A stretch of DNA of 33,854 nucleotides from a virus. Taxonomy: Duplodnaviria > Heunggongvirae > Uroviricota > Caudoviricetes. The notes under the pieces are model-generated. The model ran no database searches and was not told where the DNA came from. It saw nothing but the letters and a program-made list of their open reading frames with translations. Shown piece by piece: positions 6,500 through 30,262 of the stretch. The translations under genes were made by a program, and so were the position numbers. Numbering within the stretch: the first letter of the stretch is position 1; each line of letters opens with the position of its first letter. The stretch lies in the IMG/VR virus record IMGVR_UViG_2654588006_000001; one strand, written 5' to 3'.

Positions 6500-7972
6500 A
6501 TGGTTGAAAATTTGAGTGAGATTAGAACATCGACCGTGACTGCATTGTTAGAGAAGGTAAGGCAGAATAATTATGGGAAGTATCTGTTAAAAGCTAAAAT
6601 TGGGCGAATTCGCGGATTTTCGGGAGAAGATATTACTTTTGAATTTCCTGTTACAGCCTTGGTTGGTCCTAATGGTAGTGGAAAATCCTCTGTTCTCGGC
6701 GTTGCAGGATGTGCCTATAAAGAAATTAAGCCTAGCGTTTTCTTTCCCAAAAGTGCAATTGGTGATGAAAGCATGGCGGGGTGGAAAGTTGAATATGATA
6801 TAATTGATAAAGTTATTAATCCTCGACAAACAGTTCGCAGAACTAGTAGTTTTAGAAGCGCTAAATGGGCGAGAGATGAAGTATTATCTAGAGATGTATA
6901 TTTCTTTGGTATCGAACGGACTGTCCCTGCTGGCGAGAAGACAAAGTACAAAAAGTTAACCCGTTCCTCTTACCAACATACAGGCAGTTTATCAACGTTG
7001 AGTGCAAATGTCGCAAAACAAATAGAACATATTTTGGGCAAGGATGTGTCTGCTTTTAATGTGACAGATATTGGCCATGATGAAAAGTTTTTTGTAGGCA
7101 ATAATAATGGTAGCCGTTATTCTGAATTCCATTTTGGTGCGGGTGAGTCATCAATTATAAGAATGGTTTCTGAGATAGAGAATGCATCTGATAACAGTTT
7201 GGTTCTTATTGAAGAAATTGAAAATGGGCTGCATCCGGTAGCAACGAGACGAATGGTCGAATATCTAATTGATGTTGCCAGTCGTAAATCAATTCAGGCT
7301 GTTTTTACCACACATAGTGATTATGCCCTGATGCCATTACCACAGGAAGCAATATGGGCATGTATTGATGGACGTCTTAGAAAAGGACGGTTAACTGTTG
7401 AATCTTTAAGGGCTATATCTGGTAGGGTTGACAAAAAATTAGCTATCTTTGTTGAGGATGAGTTTGCTAAATGCTGGGTTGATACTATTCTTCGGGAAAG
7501 ATTAGGTAGTGATTATGATCAATTAGAAGTACATGCCGTCGCTGGCGATGGAAATGCTGTATCTATTCATAAGTCACACAAGGCAAATCCTTCAATTAAA
7601 TTTAAATCGCTTTGTATTATTGACGGAGATTCTTCACAAGAAGATAGTGATGAAAATGGTGTCTTTAGATTGCCGGGGACTCAACCTGAACGTAGTGTAT
7701 TCGATGACATACTTGTGAAAATTGATAATATATTGGCAATACTTACTGTTTCTTGCCAACTGCCTCCAGAATCTCAAGGTAAAGTGAGAACAGTGGTTGA
7801 ATCTGTTTCAAGAACGAATCGAGATCCCCATCTTATTTTTAATCAAATAGGCATGGAATTAGGCTTCATTTCAGAAGTGATTATTCGGGGTGCATTTTTA
7901 AGCCTTTGGGCAAGGCAAAATGAAGATTATTGTAGTGATTTAGTAAACAAAGTTAAGGCCCTTCTGGATTGA
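6500..7972 (+). CDS. ABC-type ATPase with C-terminal Toprim-like domain (OLD-family-like), 490 aa; candidate defence cargo
   Basis: Walker A GPNGSGKSS; Walker B/D-loop LVLIEEIENGLHP; H-loop FTTHS; C-terminal acidic motifs IFVEDE and IIDGDS resembling Toprim E and DxD; aagagg RBS; visibly AT-rich; occupies the slot between A and cos. Confidence 0.75.
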   Translation: MVENLSEIRTSTVTALLEKVRQNNYGKYLLKAKIGRIRGFSGEDITFEFPVTALVGPNGSGKSSVLGVAGCAYKEIKPSVFFPKSAIGDESMAGWKVEYDIIDKVINPRQTVRRTSSFRSAKWARDEVLSRDVYFFGIERTVPAGEKTKYKKLTRSSYQHTGSLSTLSANVAKQIEHILGKDVSAFNVTDIGHDEKFFVGNNNGSRYSEFHFGAGESSIIRMVSEIENASDNSLVLIEEIENGLHPVATRRMVEYLIDVASRKSIQAVFTTHSDYALMPLPQEAIWACIDGRLRKGRLTVESLRAISGRVDKKLAIFVEDEFAKCWVDTILRERLGSDYDQLEVHAVAGDGNAVSIHKSHKANPSIKFKSLCIIDGDSSQEDSDENGVFRLPGTQPERSVFDDILVKIDNILAILTVSCQLPPESQGKVRTVVESVSRTNRDPHLIFNQIGMELGFISEVIIRGAFLSLWARQNEDYCSDLVNKVKALLD

Positions 7973-17583: not shown

Positions 17584-18369
17584 TTATGAGTGATTTTTAT
17601 TTGATGCTTTGTATTCTAAAACCTTCTTATTGGCGTAAAAGAATTTTGTATATGACAGGAATATAACCAGACCTGAAGTGAAATAGACGAGGGATAGTAT
17701 TAATAATGCTTTTTTGTGACTGTTATTATCTTTAATCTCCTGGCTTAACCATTCGGAGTCCTCCTCGTTTAGCTGTAAGAGCTTATTGCAGGCGATCTCA
17801 GGAAGTGTGTCTTTTATAAATACGTTTTGCAGTTTCTTGCAATCGGCAAGGCTATAAGTTTTATTAAATTCAACTGCTTTATTTTTGAAGGATAAAAGAA
17901 CTTTGTCACTATAAACATAGTACATCATGTTTTTATATGGTATGCCTATGGCATCCCTTACTATAACGGATTGTTTGTTGTGTATGTAACATGCGAGGAG
18001 AATGTAAAAAATACTGGTCAGAATTACAATTATTGTTTTAATTATGTGTGGTGGTTTTGTTATGTCACCCCAGATGCGAGTAAGGAAAAAATACGATGTT
18101 TTTAGTTTTCCATCAATCAGTCCCTGCTGTATCATTCTCACATTTTCAATGCCTGATACATTGATTCCGTTAATTATTTTAAATAGTTGAATGTCGCGCC
18201 ACTCGCGGTCAAGTCTTTTTAATTTTTTGTCTGAATATCCAAAATTGAAATAATGTGCAATAAGCCTCATAAGGTTACTTTTACCAAAGCTAAAAAATGC
18301 TAATACTGCAAAGCTACAAAGGAAAAAAACGATTAGCCCCCACACATTAGTCACATTATAGCTGACCAT
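17584..18369 (-). CDS. AT-rich three-TM membrane protein, 261 aa (P2 orf30 position); candidate moron
   Basis: Strong RBS aaggag 6 nt before ATG; hydrophobic helices near residues 10-28, ~98-120 and ~225-245; opposite strand to the flanking late operons; visibly AT-rich. Confidence 0.8.
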   Translation of the reverse strand: MVSYNVTNVWGLIVFFLCSFAVLAFFSFGKSNLMRLIAHYFNFGYSDKKLKRLDREWRDIQLFKIINGINVSGIENVRMIQQGLIDGKLKTSYFFLTRIWGDITKPPHIIKTIIVILTSIFYILLACYIHNKQSVIVRDAIGIPYKNMMYYVYSDKVLLSFKNKAVEFNKTYSLADCKKLQNVFIKDTLPEIACNKLLQLNEEDSEWLSQEIKDNNSHKKALLILSLVYFTSGLVIFLSYTKFFYANKKVLEYKASNKNHS

Positions 18370-20878: not shown

Positions 20879-23101
20879 ATGAGCACAAAATTCAGAACCG
20901 TTATCACCACTGCTGGTGCAGCAAAGCTGGCAGCGGCAACCGCGCCGGGAGGGCGGAAGGTCAACATTACCACGATGGCCGTCGGGGATGGCGGTGGTAA
21001 ATTGCCTGTCCCGGATGCCGGACAGACCGGGCTTATCCACGAAGTCTGGCGACATGCGCTGAACAAAATCAGCCAGGACAAACGAAACAGTAATTATATT
21101 ATCGCAGAGCTGGTTATTCCGCCGGAGGTGGGCGGTTTCTGGATGCGTGAGCTTGGCCTGTACGATGATGCTGGAACGTTAATTGCCGTGGCGAACATGG
21201 CTGAAAGTTATAAGCCAGCTCTTGCCGAAGGCTCAGGGCGTTCGCAGACCTGCCGCATGGTCATCATCGTCAGCAGTGTGGCCTCAGTGGCGCTGACCAT
21301 TGACACCACAACGGTGATGGCAACGCAGGATTACGTTGATGACAAAATTGCAGAACATGAACAGTCACGACGTCACCCGGACGCCTCGCTGACCGCCAAA
21401 GGTTTTACTCAGTTAAGCAGTGCGACCAACAGCACGTCTGAAACACTCGCCGCAACACCAAAAGCGGTAAAAGCAGCATATGACCTTGCTAACGGGAAAT
21501 ACACTGCACAGGACGCCACCACAGCGCGAAAAGGCCTTGTCCAGCTCAGTAGTGCCACCAACAGCACGTCTGAAACGCTCGCCGCAACACCAAAAGCGGT
21601 AAAAGCAGCATATGACCTTGCTAACGGGAAATACACTGCACAGGACGCCACCACCGCGCGAAAAGGCCTTGTCCAGCTCAGTAGCGCCACCAACAGCGAT
21701 TCTGAAACGCTTGCGGCAACGCCAAAGGCGGTTAAGACAGCGTATGACCTTGCTAACGGGAAATACACTGCACAGGATGCCACCACGGCGCGAAAAGGTC
21801 TTGTCCAGCTCAGTAGCGCCACCAACAGTGATTCTGAAACGCTGGCTGCAACACCAAAAGCGGTGAAGTCTGCCTATGACAATGCTGAAAAACGTCTTCA
21901 GAAAGATCAGAACGGTGCGGATATTCCTGATAAAGGACGCTTCCTGAGTAACATTAATGTTTACAGCAAAGGTGAAGTGGATAAGAAAAAGGGAATGCGA
22001 AAGTATTCGTTTGCAGCCCCTGCAAATGTCGTTGCCGGGAAGTGGTATCCCGTTATCTTTCGCCGTGCTGCCAGCCTTTCAGGAGAAATGGCATCCCGCG
22101 TCGTTATTTCAACTGGTTGTTATAACGGCGATTATGTAATGAATAACTGCGAGTTTAATGGCATGGTTATGCCCGGAGGCTGGACCGATCGTGGTTCATA
22201 TGCGGCAGGTTATTTCTGGACGTATCAGACTAATGAGCGTTCAATCCATTCCATTGTTACAAGCCTGAAAGATGATGATGTATGTAGTGTTTTTTATGTT
22301 GAAGCCAGAGCTTTCCCAGTACAAATTCTTGCAGAGGAAGGGCTAACGGTTATTGTTCCGACAGAGGATTATGTCGTCGGTCAGACGACATATAAGTGGG
22401 GGGCAACTAATCCCGCTACAGAAAGCACGAACGTACAGGCTATTCTGGATTTTAAAAATGGACGTGGTTATTACTGTTCACATCCATTTATTTCCAGCCT
22501 TTCAGGAAATGCTGCAACAGCCTCAAAACTCGAAACACCGAGGAAAATAGCAGGTGTTGCCTTTGATGGTTCTGGAGATATTACCCTTAATGCCAGAAAT
22601 GTCGGTGCATTTGCACTTCGGCAGACAGGTAATACGGTTAATGGTGATACAGCCGTTGGATGGAATTGGGACAGTGGCGCATACAACGCTCTGATTGGGG
22701 GAGCATCTGCATTAATTCTTCACTTTAATATAAATGCTGGTAGCTGCCCGGCTGTACAGTTTCGTGTGAATTATAAAAATGGCGGTATATCTTACAGGTC
22801 AGCCCGTGATGGTTATGGTTTTGAATCTGGCTGGTCTGATTTCTATACCACAACACGAAAACCATCAGCGGGAGATGTTGGTGCATACACCAAAGCTGAA
22901 TCAGATTCTCGCTATGTCCGGGATATTCGCCTGGGCACTCGTGTTGTTCAGACCATGCAGAAAGGGGTTATGTATGAGAAAGCAGGGCACGTAATTACAG
23001 GGCTTGGTATTGTCGGTGAAGTCGATGGTGATGACCCCGCAGTATTCAGACCGATACAAAAATACATCAATGGCACATGGTATAACGTCGCACAGGTGTA
23101 A
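20879..23101 (+). CDS. H: Tail fibre protein gpH, 740 aa, with tandem fibre repeats and divergent C-terminus
   Basis: Conserved N-terminus, then about 3.6 tandem copies of a 44-aa motif (…LSSATNS-SETLAATPKAVK-AYDLANGKYTAQDATTARKG…); longer than the P2 H I recall. Confidence 0.9.
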   Translation: MSTKFRTVITTAGAAKLAAATAPGGRKVNITTMAVGDGGGKLPVPDAGQTGLIHEVWRHALNKISQDKRNSNYIIAELVIPPEVGGFWMRELGLYDDAGTLIAVANMAESYKPALAEGSGRSQTCRMVIIVSSVASVALTIDTTTVMATQDYVDDKIAEHEQSRRHPDASLTAKGFTQLSSATNSTSETLAATPKAVKAAYDLANGKYTAQDATTARKGLVQLSSATNSTSETLAATPKAVKAAYDLANGKYTAQDATTARKGLVQLSSATNSDSETLAATPKAVKTAYDLANGKYTAQDATTARKGLVQLSSATNSDSETLAATPKAVKSAYDNAEKRLQKDQNGADIPDKGRFLSNINVYSKGEVDKKKGMRKYSFAAPANVVAGKWYPVIFRRAASLSGEMASRVVISTGCYNGDYVMNNCEFNGMVMPGGWTDRGSYAAGYFWTYQTNERSIHSIVTSLKDDDVCSVFYVEARAFPVQILAEEGLTVIVPTEDYVVGQTTYKWGATNPATESTNVQAILDFKNGRGYYCSHPFISSLSGNAATASKLETPRKIAGVAFDGSGDITLNARNVGAFALRQTGNTVNGDTAVGWNWDSGAYNALIGGASALILHFNINAGSCPAVQFRVNYKNGGISYRSARDGYGFESGWSDFYTTTRKPSAGDVGAYTKAESDSRYVRDIRLGTRVVQTMQKGVMYEKAGHVITGLGIVGEVDGDDPAVFRPIQKYINGTWYNVAQV
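21401..21880. repeat. Tandem 132-bp repeats (about 3.6 copies) inside H
   Basis: Near-identical 132-nt units read directly from sequence; also the source of artefactual antisense ORFs. Confidence 0.9.
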
Positions 23102-23104
23102 TTT

Positions 23105-23632
23105 ATGCAGCATTTAAAAAATATTACTGCGGGTAATCCCAAAACTGTTGCTCAATATCAACTGACAAAAAATTTTGATGTTATCTGGTTATGGTCCGAA
23201 GACGGAAAAAACTGGTATGAGGAAGTAAGTAATTTTCAGGAAGACACGATAAAGATTGTTTACGACGAGAATAATATAATTGTCGGCATCACCCGAGATG
23301 CTTCAACGCTTAACCCTGAAGGTTTTAGCGTTGTTGAGGTTCCTGATATTACTGCCAACCGACGTGCTGATGACTCAGGTAAATGGATGTTTAAGGATGG
23401 TGCCGTGATTAAGCGGATTTATACGGCAGACGAACAGCAGCAACTGGCAGAATCACAAAAGGCAACTTTGCTTTCCGAAGCCGAATCCGTGATTTTGCCG
23501 CTGGAACGCGCTGTCAGGCTGAATATGGCGACGGATGAGGAACGCAGCCGACTGGAAGCATGGGAACGCTACAGCGTTCTGGTCAGTCGTGTGGATCCTG
23601 CAAATCCCGAATGGCCGGAAATACCGCAATAA
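23105..23632 (+). CDS. G: Tail fibre assembly chaperone gpG, 175 aa
   Basis: Immediately downstream of H; length as recalled for P2 G. Confidence 0.85.
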
Positions 23633-23971
23633 GTTGTATGATCTCTGGTGTGAGCTTACATATCTATAGCACAGAGTAAAGCCTAATCTGACAGTCCGCT
23701 ATGTGCCAAAAGCGGACATAACGACACGTTAGTTAGAAATCTCAAGACCAATTAGGTTGGATACTTACATGTATACTATTGCCTAACGATACTACCCTAT
23801 CAACCTCATGGTTTATAGGCGGGGGTGAGAGCCAATCGAACGCTATCGTACGTTTTTATGCTGTCTACCCTAGACCCCAAGTAGACATGAATCTTACCTG
23901 ATTTCCATACGAGGGCGACGTTGATCATCCAGCTTTAGTGCGAGCACTGAACTTAACATTTACCAGCAATA

Positions 23972-25018
23972 GTGATATTTTCTACAAAGAAAAATATATG
24001 GAATAACGTCATCGCGGGTACAAAAATGACTATAAAAAAAACATATGTAACACCAACAGAAATAGTGAAATATTTTTATGACAAACCGGAAAACGATAAC
24101 GTAAAAGAGAGAAAAACAATTGAGAGCCTGACCCGTCTCAAACCTGAGTGGGAAAATACTCTCGATATGATGAAGTTAATACGCAATTGTGAAAAGCTAG
24201 CAACTGAAGGTATTTTAATGGAATTATCTTCAGGACATACTCTTTTGGACCGTTGCTATTTCGCACCGAATTTCAATGAATCAGATGCGAAATATGGAAA
24301 GTATGATTTTATAGCTGATGGATTTGAGTCAATCATAGACCGCCTTAGTCCTTCCGTTTTACCTGTTGTTGTTGAAAAAAGTGATGGTTCACATGATCTT
24401 GGTACTAGTTTTATTGTTGGGAATAACCACACGATATTTACAGCCAGACATGTTATTGAAGACATGAAGAGTATCAGGATACTTAGAGCTGGTGGTGAGG
24501 CTTTACCAATACATAAAATCTTTGTATCTAACGATGAACGTATTGATATCGCTTTAGTTTTCACAACCATTCCGAATGAAGATAATATTCAACCACTTAA
24601 GGTCTCAACCAAAGCCTCGGTACTGGATGAAATTTTATCAATAGGATTTCCACCCATTCCAGGATTTGATGCATTAAAGTTATATGACGTTTCGCATATA
24701 AATTCGTTTGTCCGACTGTCAAAGGGGCGAATTGTTGGTTCTGGTCACTCTTACTTAGATTCACAAGACTTTTTATTATTCAATGCTAGGGTTAAGGGGG
24801 GGAATAGCGGTGGCCCTATAATTAACAAATACGGCTTTGTTATTGGTATGCTTGTACAAATACCAATATCATCTGAGGACAGTTCAAAGATTGATAACCT
24901 TGGATATGGTATAGCTGTAACAGGAAAAAGCCTGCTGGATGCTATTACATTTACAGAAAATGGCCGCGAATTAACACTCACCGACCGAGGAAATGGAGAA
25001 TATTCAACTCTAGCATAA
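23972..25018 (+). CDS. Cytoplasmic trypsin/HtrA-like serine peptidase with ~135-aa unknown N-terminal domain, 348 aa; candidate defence cargo
   Basis: Catalytic-triad motifs in order: GTSFIVGNNHTIFTARHV (His), DIALVF (Asp), GGNSGGPII (Ser); no signal peptide or TM; visibly AT-rich; in the G/FI slot. Start may be GTG 23972 or ATG 24026. Confidence 0.8.
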   Translation: MIFSTKKNIWNNVIAGTKMTIKKTYVTPTEIVKYFYDKPENDNVKERKTIESLTRLKPEWENTLDMMKLIRNCEKLATEGILMELSSGHTLLDRCYFAPNFNESDAKYGKYDFIADGFESIIDRLSPSVLPVVVEKSDGSHDLGTSFIVGNNHTIFTARHVIEDMKSIRILRAGGEALPIHKIFVSNDERIDIALVFTTIPNEDNIQPLKVSTKASVLDEILSIGFPPIPGFDALKLYDVSHINSFVRLSKGRIVGSGHSYLDSQDFLLFNARVKGGNSGGPIINKYGFVIGMLVQIPISSEDSSKIDNLGYGIAVTGKSLLDAITFTENGRELTLTDRGNGEYSTLA

Positions 25019-25496
25019 ATGATATTATTAATTAAGTTGTACTAACTCAGTTTAAATGAATCAAGCATCCCCGTAACTTTGCCTGAAAAGGCTCATCGAG
25101 GGATGCACATTGTACGGATGTGTGAAAACTAAATCGGCTTTGTCACTTGGATTCGAGGGGAAAACTGAACTGAAAGCGATAAAAACGTCTAAAAAATCGT
25201 TTCGCAGACAGATGCACCCGATTCAAGCCATTTTGAGGATGGCTTTCTGCCTTTTATATTTATATTAATCATAAGGTTATTCCATTGGTGTACGATATCG
25301 TGCTTTGCCCCTCATCTCCCAGATAACTAATTAGCCTTAAAATTACTCATGTGTTTCTGCCGGTTAAAATTATATGGTTTTCATTTACAATAGTCTCAAG
25401 TCCGCTCTTCGCTCAAAGCAGACTGTCAGATTTGATAGCGTTTTGGCTATGTAAATTGTCAGTCGGGAAATAAGTGAGTACAAATCATGACAGGCG

Positions 25497-25520
25497 GGCG
25501 GATTGTCCGCCTTTTCTTTA
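25497..25520 (+). terminator. Rho-independent terminator upstream of FI
   Basis: GC-rich 6-bp stem ggcgga / tccgcc, loop ttg, followed by ttttcttta. Confidence 0.55.
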
Positions 25521-27822: not shown

Positions 27823-30262
27823 CAATGTAAAATTACAGGTATTGCTCAGGGCTGTTGACCAGGCATCCCGCCCGTTTAAATCCATCCGCACAGCGAGCAA
27901 GTCGCTGTCGGGGGATATCCGGGAAACACAAAAATCACTGCGCGAGCTGAACGGTCACGCATCCCGTATTGAGGGATTCCGCAAGACCAGCGCACAGCTC
28001 GCCGTGACTGGTCATGCACTTGAAAAGGCACGGCAGGAGGCCGAAGCCCTTGCCACACAGTTTAAAAACACCGAGCGTCCGACCCGTGCTCAGGCGAAAG
28101 TGCTGGAATCCGCAAAGCGTGCGGCGGAGGACTTACAGGCGAAATATAACCGCCTGACGGATTCCGTTAAACGCCAGCAGCGGGAACTGGCCGCTGTGGG
28201 AATTAATACCCGCAATCTTGCACATGATGAGCAGGGACTGAAAAACCGTATCAGTGAAACCACCGCACAGCTTAACCGTCAGCGCGACGCGCTGGCGCGT
28301 GTCAGTGCGCAACAGGCAAAACTTAATGCAGTAAAACAGCGTTATCAGGCCGGAAAGGAACTGGCCGGAAATATGGCCTCAGTAGGCGCTGCCGGTGTGG
28401 GGATTGCGGCGGCGGGAACGATGGCCGGAGTTAAGTTGCTGATGCCCGGATATGAGTTTGCGCAGAAAAACTCAGAATTGCAGGCTGTGCTCGGTGTGGC
28501 AAAAGACTCCGCCGAAATGGCTGCACTACGCAAGCAGGCGCGCCAGCTCGGTGACAACACCGCCGCCTCAGCGGATGATGCGGCCGGTGCGCAGATTATC
28601 ATTGCGAAAGCGGGTGGGGATGTTGATGCCATTCAGGCGGCAACGCCGGTCACGCTGAATATGGCGCTGGCGAACCGTCGCACGATGGAAGAAAACGCCG
28701 CCCTGCTGATGGGGATGAAATCTGCCTTTCAGCTTTCAAACGATAAGGTCGCTCATATCGGGGATGTTCTCTCCATGACGATGAACAAAACCGCCGCTGA
28801 TTTTGACGGCATGAGCGATGCGCTGACCTATGCCGCACCAGTGGCAAAAAATGCCGGTGTCAGCATTGAAGAAACTGCCGCAATGGTCGGGGCGCTGCAT
28901 GATGCAAAAATCACAGGCTCAATGGCGGGGACGGGAAGCCGTGCCGTGTTAAGTCGCCTGCAGGCACCGACTGGAAAAGCATGGGATGCACTCAAAGAGC
29001 TTGGCGTGAAAACCTCAGACAGTAAGGGAAACACCCGACCAGTATTTACCATTCTGAAAGAAATGCAGGCCAGCTTTGAGAAAAACCGGCTCGGTACTGC
29101 CCAGCAGGCCGAATACATGAAAACCATTTTCGGGGAGGAGGCCAGCTCAGCCGCCGCTGTGCTGATGACTGCCGCGTCAACCGGAAAGCTGGACAAACTG
29201 ACCGCTGCGTTTAAAGCCTCAGACGGGAAGACCGCAGAGCTGGTAAATATCATGCAGGACAACCTCGGCGGTGACTTTAAGGAGTTTCAGTCCGCTTATG
29301 AGGCGGTGGGGACAGACCTGTTTGACCAGCAGGAAGGCGCACTGCGTAAGCTCACGCAGACGGCCACAAAGTATGTGTTAAAACTCGACGGCTGGATCCA
29401 GAAAAACAAATCACTGGCGTCAACCATCGGCCTCATTGTCGGTGGTGCACTGGCGCTGACTGCTGTCATCGGTGCCATTGGCCTCGTAGCCTGGCCGGTT
29501 ATCACTGGCATCAATGCCATCATCGCGGCAGCAGGCGCAATGGGGGCAATCTTCACGACGGTTGGCAGTGCTGTTATGACGGCCATCGGGGCGATTAGCT
29601 GGCCGGTTGTGGCCGTGGTGGCCGCCATTGTCGCCGGGGCGTTACTTATCCATAAATACTGGGAGCCTGTCAGCGCATTCTTTGGCGGTGTGGTGGAAGG
29701 GCTGAAAGCGGCATTTGCGCCGGTGGGAGAACTGTTCACGCCACTGAAGCCGGTGTTTGACTGGCTGGGCGAAAAGTTACAGGCCGCGTGGCAGTGGTTT
29801 AAAAACCTGATTGCCCCGGTCAAAGCCACACAGGACACCCTGAACCGTTGCCGTGACACGGGCGTCATGTTCGGGCAGGCACTGGCTGACGCGCTGATGC
29901 TGCCGCTTAATGCGTTCAACAAACTGCGCAGCGGTATTGACTGGGTACTGGAAAAACTCGGTGTTATCAACAAAGAGTCAGACACACTTGACCAGACCGC
30001 AGCCAGAACTCATGCCGCCACGTATGGCACCGGTGGTTATATTCCGGCGACCAGCTCTTATGCAGGCTATCAGGCTTATCAGCCGGTTACGGCACCGGCT
30101 GGCCGCTCTTATGTGGACCAGAGTAAAAACGAATATCACATCAACCTGACGGGCGGTACTGCGCCGGGAACACAGCTTGACCGCCAGTTACAGGATGCGC
30201 TCGAAAAATACGAGCGGGATAAACGTGCGCGCGCCCGTGCCAGCATGATGCATGACGGTTAA
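27815..30262 (+). CDS. T: Tail tape measure protein gpT, 815 aa
   Basis: Long Ala/Gly-rich protein with hydrophobic central segment; synteny and length. Confidence 0.92.
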   Translation: MSNNVKLQVLLRAVDQASRPFKSIRTASKSLSGDIRETQKSLRELNGHASRIEGFRKTSAQLAVTGHALEKARQEAEALATQFKNTERPTRAQAKVLESAKRAAEDLQAKYNRLTDSVKRQQRELAAVGINTRNLAHDEQGLKNRISETTAQLNRQRDALARVSAQQAKLNAVKQRYQAGKELAGNMASVGAAGVGIAAAGTMAGVKLLMPGYEFAQKNSELQAVLGVAKDSAEMAALRKQARQLGDNTAASADDAAGAQIIIAKAGGDVDAIQAATPVTLNMALANRRTMEENAALLMGMKSAFQLSNDKVAHIGDVLSMTMNKTAADFDGMSDALTYAAPVAKNAGVSIEETAAMVGALHDAKITGSMAGTGSRAVLSRLQAPTGKAWDALKELGVKTSDSKGNTRPVFTILKEMQASFEKNRLGTAQQAEYMKTIFGEEASSAAAVLMTAASTGKLDKLTAAFKASDGKTAELVNIMQDNLGGDFKEFQSAYEAVGTDLFDQQEGALRKLTQTATKYVLKLDGWIQKNKSLASTIGLIVGGALALTAVIGAIGLVAWPVITGINAIIAAAGAMGAIFTTVGSAVMTAIGAISWPVVAVVAAIVAGALLIHKYWEPVSAFFGGVVEGLKAAFAPVGELFTPLKPVFDWLGEKLQAAWQWFKNLIAPVKATQDTLNRCRDTGVMFGQALADALMLPLNAFNKLRSGIDWVLEKLGVINKESDTLDQTAARTHAATYGTGGYIPATSSYAGYQAYQPVTAPAGRSYVDQSKNEYHINLTGGTAPGTQLDRQLQDALEKYERDKRARARASMMHDG

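Follow-up and report, generated by a model that had tools for sequence, protein, structure and literature searches.

A winged-helix–S1 protease gene in the fun(Z) slot of a P2-type prophage of Escherichia coli: a mobile single-gene cassette and candidate anti-phage system

The stretch of DNA studied here (the window, 33,854 nucleotides; IMG/VR record IMGVR_UViG_2654588006_000001) is a complete P2-type prophage of the avian pathogenic Escherichia coli (APEC) strain 789 (NZ_CP010315.1), situated between yegQ and yegR, and our subject is a protease gene which it carries as cargo. As the initial annotation of the window had proposed, the gene occupies the fun(Z) slot of P2: it sits between the tail-fiber-assembly gene G and the tail-sheath gene FI, and the DNA on either side matches P2-like phage records of the "Z-region", in which the cargo is unrelated. 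The fun locus has been described as the second defense hotspot of P2, with three validated systems (Vassallo et al., 10.1101/2022.05.12.491691). All the database names given to the gene product are generic; the features of the locus are collected in Table 1.

The open reading frame (ORF) on the plus strand of this region (23972-25018) encodes 348 residues when read from a GTG, and it was in this form that the gene was first reported. The frame is real, but the GTG is not its start and the true product has 330 residues, beginning at the ATG at 24026. The start was assigned there because the RefSeq annotation begins its 330-residue product at this ATG, because PHROG 18002 (unknown function, 330 positions) spans residues 19-348 of the longer ORF end to end with an E-value of about 1e-234, because the equivalent ATG is used by all four homologues of 80-86% identity, which come from unrelated contexts, and because a conserved extended -10 promoter element takes its "TG" from the GTG at 23972. 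Residue numbers below are those of the 330-residue protein, and adding 18 gives the numbering of the 348-residue ORF. Two other properties reported for the gene were found again around the true coding sequence (CDS), namely the ORF-free flanks (393 bp on the 5' side and 598 bp on the 3' side) and the AT-richness, with a GC content of 0.38 for the cassette described below and 0.37 for the CDS versus 0.52 for the remaining prophage and 0.57 for the sheath gene.

The C-terminal part of the protein is a protease of the trypsin type. The complete trypsin/HtrA-type triad claimed for it is present in canonical order, in the motifs TARHV (His142), DIALVF (Asp174) and GNSGGP (Ser261), and these three residues are invariant across an alignment of 46 homologues. 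The Pfam search which had been suggested as a check placed Trypsin_2 (PF13365) on residues 126-275 over its full profile (1-144), with 64.2 bits for a gathering cut-off of 27.6 (E=2.9e-17), and PF00089 was also above its cut-off (33.3 versus 20.6 bits). AlphaFold, run with the homologue alignment, gave a two-domain model with a mean predicted local distance difference test (pLDDT) of 83.8 and a predicted template-modeling score (pTM) of 0.84; this model and Foldseek agreed on a chymotrypsin-type double β-barrel, the protease domain superposing on DegS, DegP, DegQ and MucD of the PDB (E of about 3e-14, probability 1.00), and a PDB sequence profile search concurred (HtrA, MarP, DegS). Searches of the PDB and of predicted viral structures with the full model found no match covering both domains (TMq ≤0.53), the protease domain only being matched. 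The Kyte-Doolittle hydropathy, averaged over 19 residues, peaks at 1.22, and the N-terminus is hydrophilic, therefore there is no signal peptide or transmembrane segment, in line with the cytoplasmic location first assigned to the protein. Judged by these sequence criteria, the product is a genuine member of the S1/Trypsin_2 family and a predicted cytoplasmic peptidase.

The likeness to the HtrA proteases (DegS, DegP, DegQ, MarP) comprises the chymotrypsin double-barrel fold, the His-Asp-Ser order and the GNSGG motif. It may extend to the loop of residues 211-227, between the catalytic Asp and Ser, which is conserved in sequence and yet modeled with a pLDDT below 50, and which would sit roughly where the HtrA regulatory loops do. 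In the HtrA family proper, however, the proteins are exported and a PDZ domain stands at the C-terminal, whereas here there is no membrane anchor or export signal, Pfam finds no PDZ domain, the protein ends about 45 residues past the protease core, and the putative regulatory domain is N-terminal and of the winged-helix type. The NCBIfam models for HtrA, DegS, DegP, DegQ and MarP reach only about 20-46 bits for cut-offs of 250-800 (the best, TIGR02037, 45.8 versus 416). The protein thus has an HtrA-like fold but is not a true member of the HtrA family.

The N-terminal region had been described as about 135 residues matching nothing recognizable. Sequence searches indeed gave no match for it, but its length comes to about 118 residues and its fold is confidently modeled as a winged helix, with a helix-helix-helix-strand-strand topology and structural likeness to known winged helices. 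The helical linker that follows carries the conserved aromatic motif Y90-G-x-Y93-D-F...G99-F100, and five positions of the region (F17, Y90, Y93, G99 and F100) are nearly invariant in the 46-sequence alignment. The winged-helix domain is acidic (pI 5.2, net negative charge), and its nearest structures include the protein-binding winged helices of Stn1 and RPA32C, along with DNA binders. A secretion or periplasmic module, which would have overturned the initial annotation, is thus not what lies at the N-terminus: the modeled fold is a winged helix and a signal peptide is lacking.

Two other relationships were considered for this region and rejected. A Pfam match to CTD12 (ABC-3C; E=0.004) over residues 5-46 of the 348-residue ORF was below threshold, fell mostly on the untranslated leader and vanished once the true N-terminal domain was scanned. 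A marginal match (E=0.027) linked the YGxYDF motif to PDB chains of AsnC-type regulators, but the region is helical in the model, unlike the strand of an AsnC-type ligand-binding domain, and the same motif draws low-complexity false positives.

We also asked how the winged helix is distributed, with an exhaustive search of 1.84 billion representative proteins using a hidden Markov model profile of the N-terminal region. It returned 169 matches, and every match checked was a fusion of the winged helix to Trypsin_2, except for two low-complexity false positives (P0106 and P0204). The domain thus appears to be family-specific, found fused to this protease and to nothing else. The idea of a promiscuous sensor module, common to other effectors or shuffled between them, was therefore rejected.

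Compared with the homologues of 80-86% identity, the CDS has a ratio of nonsynonymous to synonymous substitution rates (dN/dS) of 0.12-0.19, the protease taken alone giving 0.09-0.13 and the N-terminal region 0.17-0.29, and both domains are under purifying selection. That the N-terminal domain evolves about twice as fast as the protease fits the expectation for a specificity domain. The low dN/dS in both domains also bears on the idea that the gene is a decaying passenger without current function, which we consider the least probable of all the explanations discussed here. It would account for the copies disrupted by insertion sequences (IS) and for an AT-rich, probably poorly expressed gene, but besides the selection on both domains it has against it the invariant triad, the length kept at about 330 residues across phyla and the conserved promoter.

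The gene is carried on a mobile cassette. It occurs in 41 of 5,426 complete E. coli genomes, 13 times in the P2 slot and 28 times elsewhere, and the 28 copies elsewhere share the 1,731-bp stretch of Table 1 at 99.3-99.5% identity. One lies in a lambdoid prophage, where its neighbors are a DUF2254 gene and hokD (L002), another in a thrW-integrated island near a reverse-transcriptase gene (L010), and another in an e14-like element, at the end that holds the cargo and near an ImmA/IrrE-HTH pair (L011); one copy is close to the vat toxin island. Three of the 41 copies are split by IS4-like or IS3 elements (NZ_CP069677.1, NZ_CP100947.1 and NZ_CP100930.1; H64-H66), which could reflect a fitness cost or simple decay.

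Between contexts, homology stops at the outer half-stem of the terminal hairpins, which suggests that the cassette is exchanged by a site-specific or terminal-repeat-mediated process; no recombinase was identified for these ends. The core GCTnTGwGCsAArAGCGGAC (window 23685-23717 and 25400-25432) recurs at both ends of the cassette in each of the enterobacterial contexts that we examined, and it surrounds this gene in the lambdoid, thrW, e14-like and smpB-island contexts (L002, L010, L011, L058, L003 and L004 are listed with the core). It also brackets unrelated cargo in P2-EC46 and P2-EC67, which together with P2 fun(Z) share with our gene the insertion slot and the bounding inverted-repeat hairpins. 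The cargo itself differs: the P2, Wphi and P2-EC records match the flanks only (11-15% of the query, 15% for P2), so that the gene, as first stated, is not P2 Fun itself. The hairpin ends are known in outline, since the GenBank records AJ512680 and AJ512685 already annotate them as the left and right Z-region inverted repeats. The hairpin pattern has three matches in the window for 0.07 expected; the third, with two mismatches, falls within the tape-measure gene (29290-29313, plus strand) and is probably due to chance.

Inside the cassette, the gene is predicted to have a conserved promoter of its own: the -35 TTAACA does not vary between five homologous cassettes taken from unrelated contexts, and their TG-extended -10 is conserved as well. 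With such a promoter, expression could be independent of the P2 late tail operon. The 3' spacer goes with the E. coli cassette and is missing from the cassette of an 80% homologue. A hidden partner in the flanks (antitoxin, noncoding RNA or decayed gene) was rejected because of this missing spacer and also because we found no Rfam match, no tblastn remnant and a fold z of -1.5. Two repeats between the coding region and the spacer (D1 and I2) were taken as chance, the flanks showing no gene remnant.

Table 1. Coordinates of the protease gene, its domains and its cassette (window positions)
Feature	Position	Strand	Basis or remark
CDS, 330 residues, winged-helix–S1 protease (WP_044502276.1, RefSeq "S1 family peptidase")	24026..25018	+	ATG start
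N-terminal region, residues 1-118: modeled winged helix (about residues 1-80) and helical linker	24026..24379	+	
HtrA/DegS-like S1 protease domain, residues 119-330 (C-terminal 212 residues)	24380..25015	+	Pfam, Foldseek, PDB profile search, invariant columns
Codon of His142	24449-24451	+	catalytic triad
Codon of Asp174	24545-24547	+	catalytic triad
Codon of Ser261	24806-24808	+	catalytic triad
Conserved motif FPPIPGFD	24647-24670	+	leads into the low-confidence loop of residues 211-227
Transferable single-gene cassette, 1731 bp, GC 0.38	23694..25424	+	99.3-99.5% identity over exactly this span elsewhere
Left inverted repeat, P2 Z-region	23605..23717	.	mapped from the repeat_region feature of AJ512680/AJ512685
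Left-end hairpin GTCCGCT-N10-AGCGGAC	23694-23717		inner end of the left inverted repeat
Right inverted repeat, P2 Z-region	25400..25490	.	
Right-end hairpin GTCCGCT-N10-AGCAGAC	25400-25423		inner end of the right inverted repeat
Predicted promoter: -35 TTAACA, 17-nt spacer, TG-extended -10 (GTGATATTTT)	23953..23981	+	promoter scan
3' spacer with a terminator-like hairpin at 25225-25245	25019..25399	+	

The relatives of the protein are few and widely scattered. A search of 5.8 billion proteins gave 75 of them, nearly all of about 330 residues (E. coli, Pseudomonas, Nitrospina, Bacteroidota), and the family, which also occurs in Cyanobacteria and Verrucomicrobiota with the same steady length, is patchy, with 44 loci in about 185,000 species and in at least five phyla. 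This distribution is typical of horizontally moved accessory genes. The homologues of 80-86% identity were found among the tail-fiber genes of a second P2-type prophage, with a GAPS4-type nuclease nearby, as the first gene after the integrase at smpB, and on IncF plasmids of Klebsiella, where IS3 and a GNAT/DUF1778 toxin-antitoxin pair adjoin the gene. One and the same homologue of 330 residues, 54% identical to the protein of the window, was found at two Pseudomonas loci: at the first the hrpL-hrpJ-hrcV type III secretion cluster is about 2.6 kb away, and at the second the gene lies between HEPN_AbiU2 and DUF4238 genes, adjoining a DUF927/Toprim primase, in a satellite hotspot (L006 7001-7993 and L007 3034-4026). 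No recurring partner gene was seen in any of the contexts examined, the gene always standing alone.

Some of these contexts raise the question of whether the protein is a lysogenic-conversion or virulence factor that is exported non-classically, for example as a type III secretion effector. The E. coli hosts include APEC and enterotoxigenic (ETEC) strains, one copy is close to the vat island, GenBank calls neighboring Z-region ORFs "putative lysogenic conversion protein", and one Pseudomonas copy is beside the hrp cluster just mentioned. We nevertheless hold this explanation to be very improbable: the protein has neither a signal peptide nor a transmembrane segment, the carriers also include commensal and environmental E. 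coli isolates, the family extends to Nitrospina, Bacteroidota, Cyanobacteria and Verrucomicrobiota, and the very same Pseudomonas protein is also found in a satellite hotspot between Abi-type genes.

Taken together, the gene is a self-contained, horizontally mobile, single-gene cassette, and its most likely role, to which we give a probability of about one half, is that of a prophage-borne anti-phage protease of the abortive-infection type. Several observations on context point in this direction, besides the hotspot slot, the patchy distribution and the mobile settings of the relatives described above. The immediate neighbors of the gene at 32 distant loci include AbiEii, a prokaryotic Argonaute (pAgo) with TIR, a retron-VII reverse transcriptase with DUF3800, PglZ, Mrr and nSTAND3, as well as the PADLOC candidates PDC-S01, PDC-S03 and PDC-S73. 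In the same prophage the other P2 hotspot is occupied too: flanked by the replication endonuclease gene and the portal gene is a 490-residue "ATP-dependent nuclease" (window 6500-7972, plus strand), with a full-length match to the PADLOC candidate HEC-04 (E=4.6e-225) and weaker ones to AriA, AbiLi and GajA-type ATPases. Within E. coli, the cassette was seen in four mobile contexts, including the cargo end of the e14-like element, and in PADLOC the protease domain scored best against defense-effector proteases (retron XI, LmuA and HamA). Finally, AT-rich immunity genes have been reported to be silenced by H-NS (10.64898/2026.09.05.749240), and this gene is AT-rich.

This support is contextual rather than statistical, the gene being one of very many candidates among hotspot cargo, and a number of results weigh against a defense role. 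Defense genes were not measurably enriched around the family: the density of PADLOC families was about 2.0 per protein both in the nearest neighbors (251/126) and more than 6.5 kb away (177/88), in a comparison of near and distant flanks of the same loci where the distant flanks may still lie in islands and PADLOC profiles cross-match generic ATPases and helicases. The PADLOC search proposed by the initial annotation returned matches to the protease domain only, and no named system of PADLOC-DB v2 matches the protein, in agreement with its being described as unnamed. In the literature searched we found neither a description of the family nor a phenotype; it is absent from Rousset 2022 (PMC9122126), from the Vassallo 2022 preprint, from DefensePredictor (PMC13092281), from the modularity-screen preprints and from the preprint on trypsin-MBL modules (10.1101/2025.09.03.673762). 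Since the winged helix is never joined to other effectors, the modularity argument for calling it a sensor is missing, and the activation mechanism proposed below is drawn purely by analogy. A tblastn search with the protein (E≤1e-10) found no homologue in 50,697 deposited phage genomes, and several family members stand alone among housekeeping genes.

The last two observations also bear on the rival functions. The protease might serve the mobile element itself, in counter-defense or in competition between elements, by cutting immune proteins of the host, or else repressors or structural proteins that belong to rival prophages. Its carriers are prophages, satellites and plasmids, winged-helix domains often bind repressor-like or DNA-associated proteins, and the e14-like copy has an ImmA/IrrE-HTH pair nearby. 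Yet the gene is also found as a lone chromosomal gene without a recognizable mobile element, it is absent from all those deposited genomes of actively propagating phages, and the predicted promoter, of sigma-70 type, suggests that the gene is expressed in the lysogen rather than in the lytic phase, so that we find this function unlikely. It is also improbable, in our estimation to a slightly greater degree, that the gene encodes a cytoplasmic protease with a role in stress or regulation, or serves as a toxin-like addiction gene, hitch-hiking in variable slots with no part in defense. Such a role would suit the HtrA-like fold, the loci surrounded by housekeeping genes and the three IS-split E. 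coli copies, which are consistent with dispensability or cost. Against it, the conserved proteases of the cell already cover cytoplasmic protein quality control, the distribution is extremely patchy with repeated moves between mobile elements, and the flanks hold neither an ORF for a cognate antitoxin nor an Rfam RNA, nor do they fold in an unusual way.

Returning to the anti-phage protease, we compared the protein with known systems whose output is proteolysis. Lit, from prophage e14, is a zinc metalloprotease whose trigger and substrate are known; it has no winged helix and no kinship of sequence or fold with our protein. What the two have in common is that each is a prophage-encoded, single-gene cytoplasmic protease in a cargo region, and Lit serves as the model for a lone protease aborting infection (10.64898/2026.09.05.749240). 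In the trypsin-like defense modules, the S1 protease is the immune output (10.1101/2025.09.03.673762), and the protease domain of our protein matches such effectors in PADLOC (retron XI, LmuA and Hachiman/HamA) with E-values from 6e-13 to 1e-7. These matches are confined to the protease part. For retron type XI they cover profile positions 340-486 of 506, and both the reverse-transcriptase domain (Pfam) and a flanking Rfam RNA are absent here; for Lamassu they cover positions 16-175 of 425 of the LmuA protease, and there is no SMC-like LmuB partner. The trypsin modules of Hachiman, Avs and pAgo systems have an adjacent, co-evolving nuclease of the metallo-β-lactamase (MBL) fold (10.1101/2025.09.03.673762), whereas our gene stands alone in its cassette, with neither such a nuclease nor a helicase. 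The PADLOC candidates PDC-M35A (E=4e-7) and PDC-S45 (E=7.5e-4) give weak and partial matches to the protease region (residues 126-295 and 119-170 of the 348-residue ORF, respectively), which do not indicate the same family. The winged-helix–S1 fusion is thus a candidate for an architecture previously undescribed in the literature searched, while single-gene hotspot defense with a protease output is of a known kind.

How such a protein might work can be proposed from its relatives in fold. HtrA proteases are oligomers which remain inactive until a regulatory domain binds its ligand, as happens with DegS and its PDZ domain. By analogy, the part played by the PDZ domain would here fall to the winged helix and the aromatic linker, which would hold the cytoplasmic protease latent. 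A phage-derived ligand would then bind the N-terminal region and switch the protease on; as the winged helix is acidic and resembles those of RPA32C and Stn1, this ligand would more likely be a phage protein than DNA. The active protease would cut essential host or phage proteins and phage production would stop, as with Lit of e14. Latency, trigger, substrate and abortive outcome are here steps which we infer from these precedents. In its broadest form, which we advance only tentatively, the proposal would make the protein the first member of a family, unnamed so far and spanning several phyla, of single-protein immune receptors in which the winged helix senses a phage protein and allosterically releases the HtrA-like protease to abort infection, and which spread as a promoter-bearing cassette whose hairpin ends allow it to move from one kind of element to another (P2, lambdoid and e14-type prophages, satellites, islands).

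If this receptor exists as proposed, a cytoplasmic DegS-like switch has been repurposed for immunity. If the gene is a defense gene, its product of 330 residues would be among the smallest immune proteins combining a sensor and an effector, it would bring one more validated system to the less-studied second hotspot of the P2-like phages, and, because its output would be proteolysis by a well-understood fold, it would be tractable for learning how a lone protease senses infection and what must be cut. If it is not, it still represents an uncharacterized family of cytoplasmic HtrA-like proteases with a new regulatory domain. The hairpin-ended cassette offers a concrete handle on the exchange of cargo between the prophage hotspots of unrelated phage types.

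Other features of the prophage were noted along the way. Just outside the right inverted repeat, in the P2 backbone upstream of the sheath gene, a strong terminator-like hairpin (25492-25512, plus strand; a 9-bp stem with 6 GC pairs and a T-run) would insulate the late tail operon from transcription leaving the cargo slot. In the late region, between the virion-morphogenesis gene and the baseplate gene V, a hypothetical gene of 261 residues (17584-18369, minus strand) was matched by nothing in PADLOC and may be a further moron. Finally, the tail-fiber gene (20879-23101) contains at window 21350-21800 about four tandem copies of a unit of about 45 residues (…KGLVQLSSATNSxSETLAATPKAVKxAYDLANGKYTAQDATTAR…), and these repeats coincide with a strong peak of AT skew (about 0.4).

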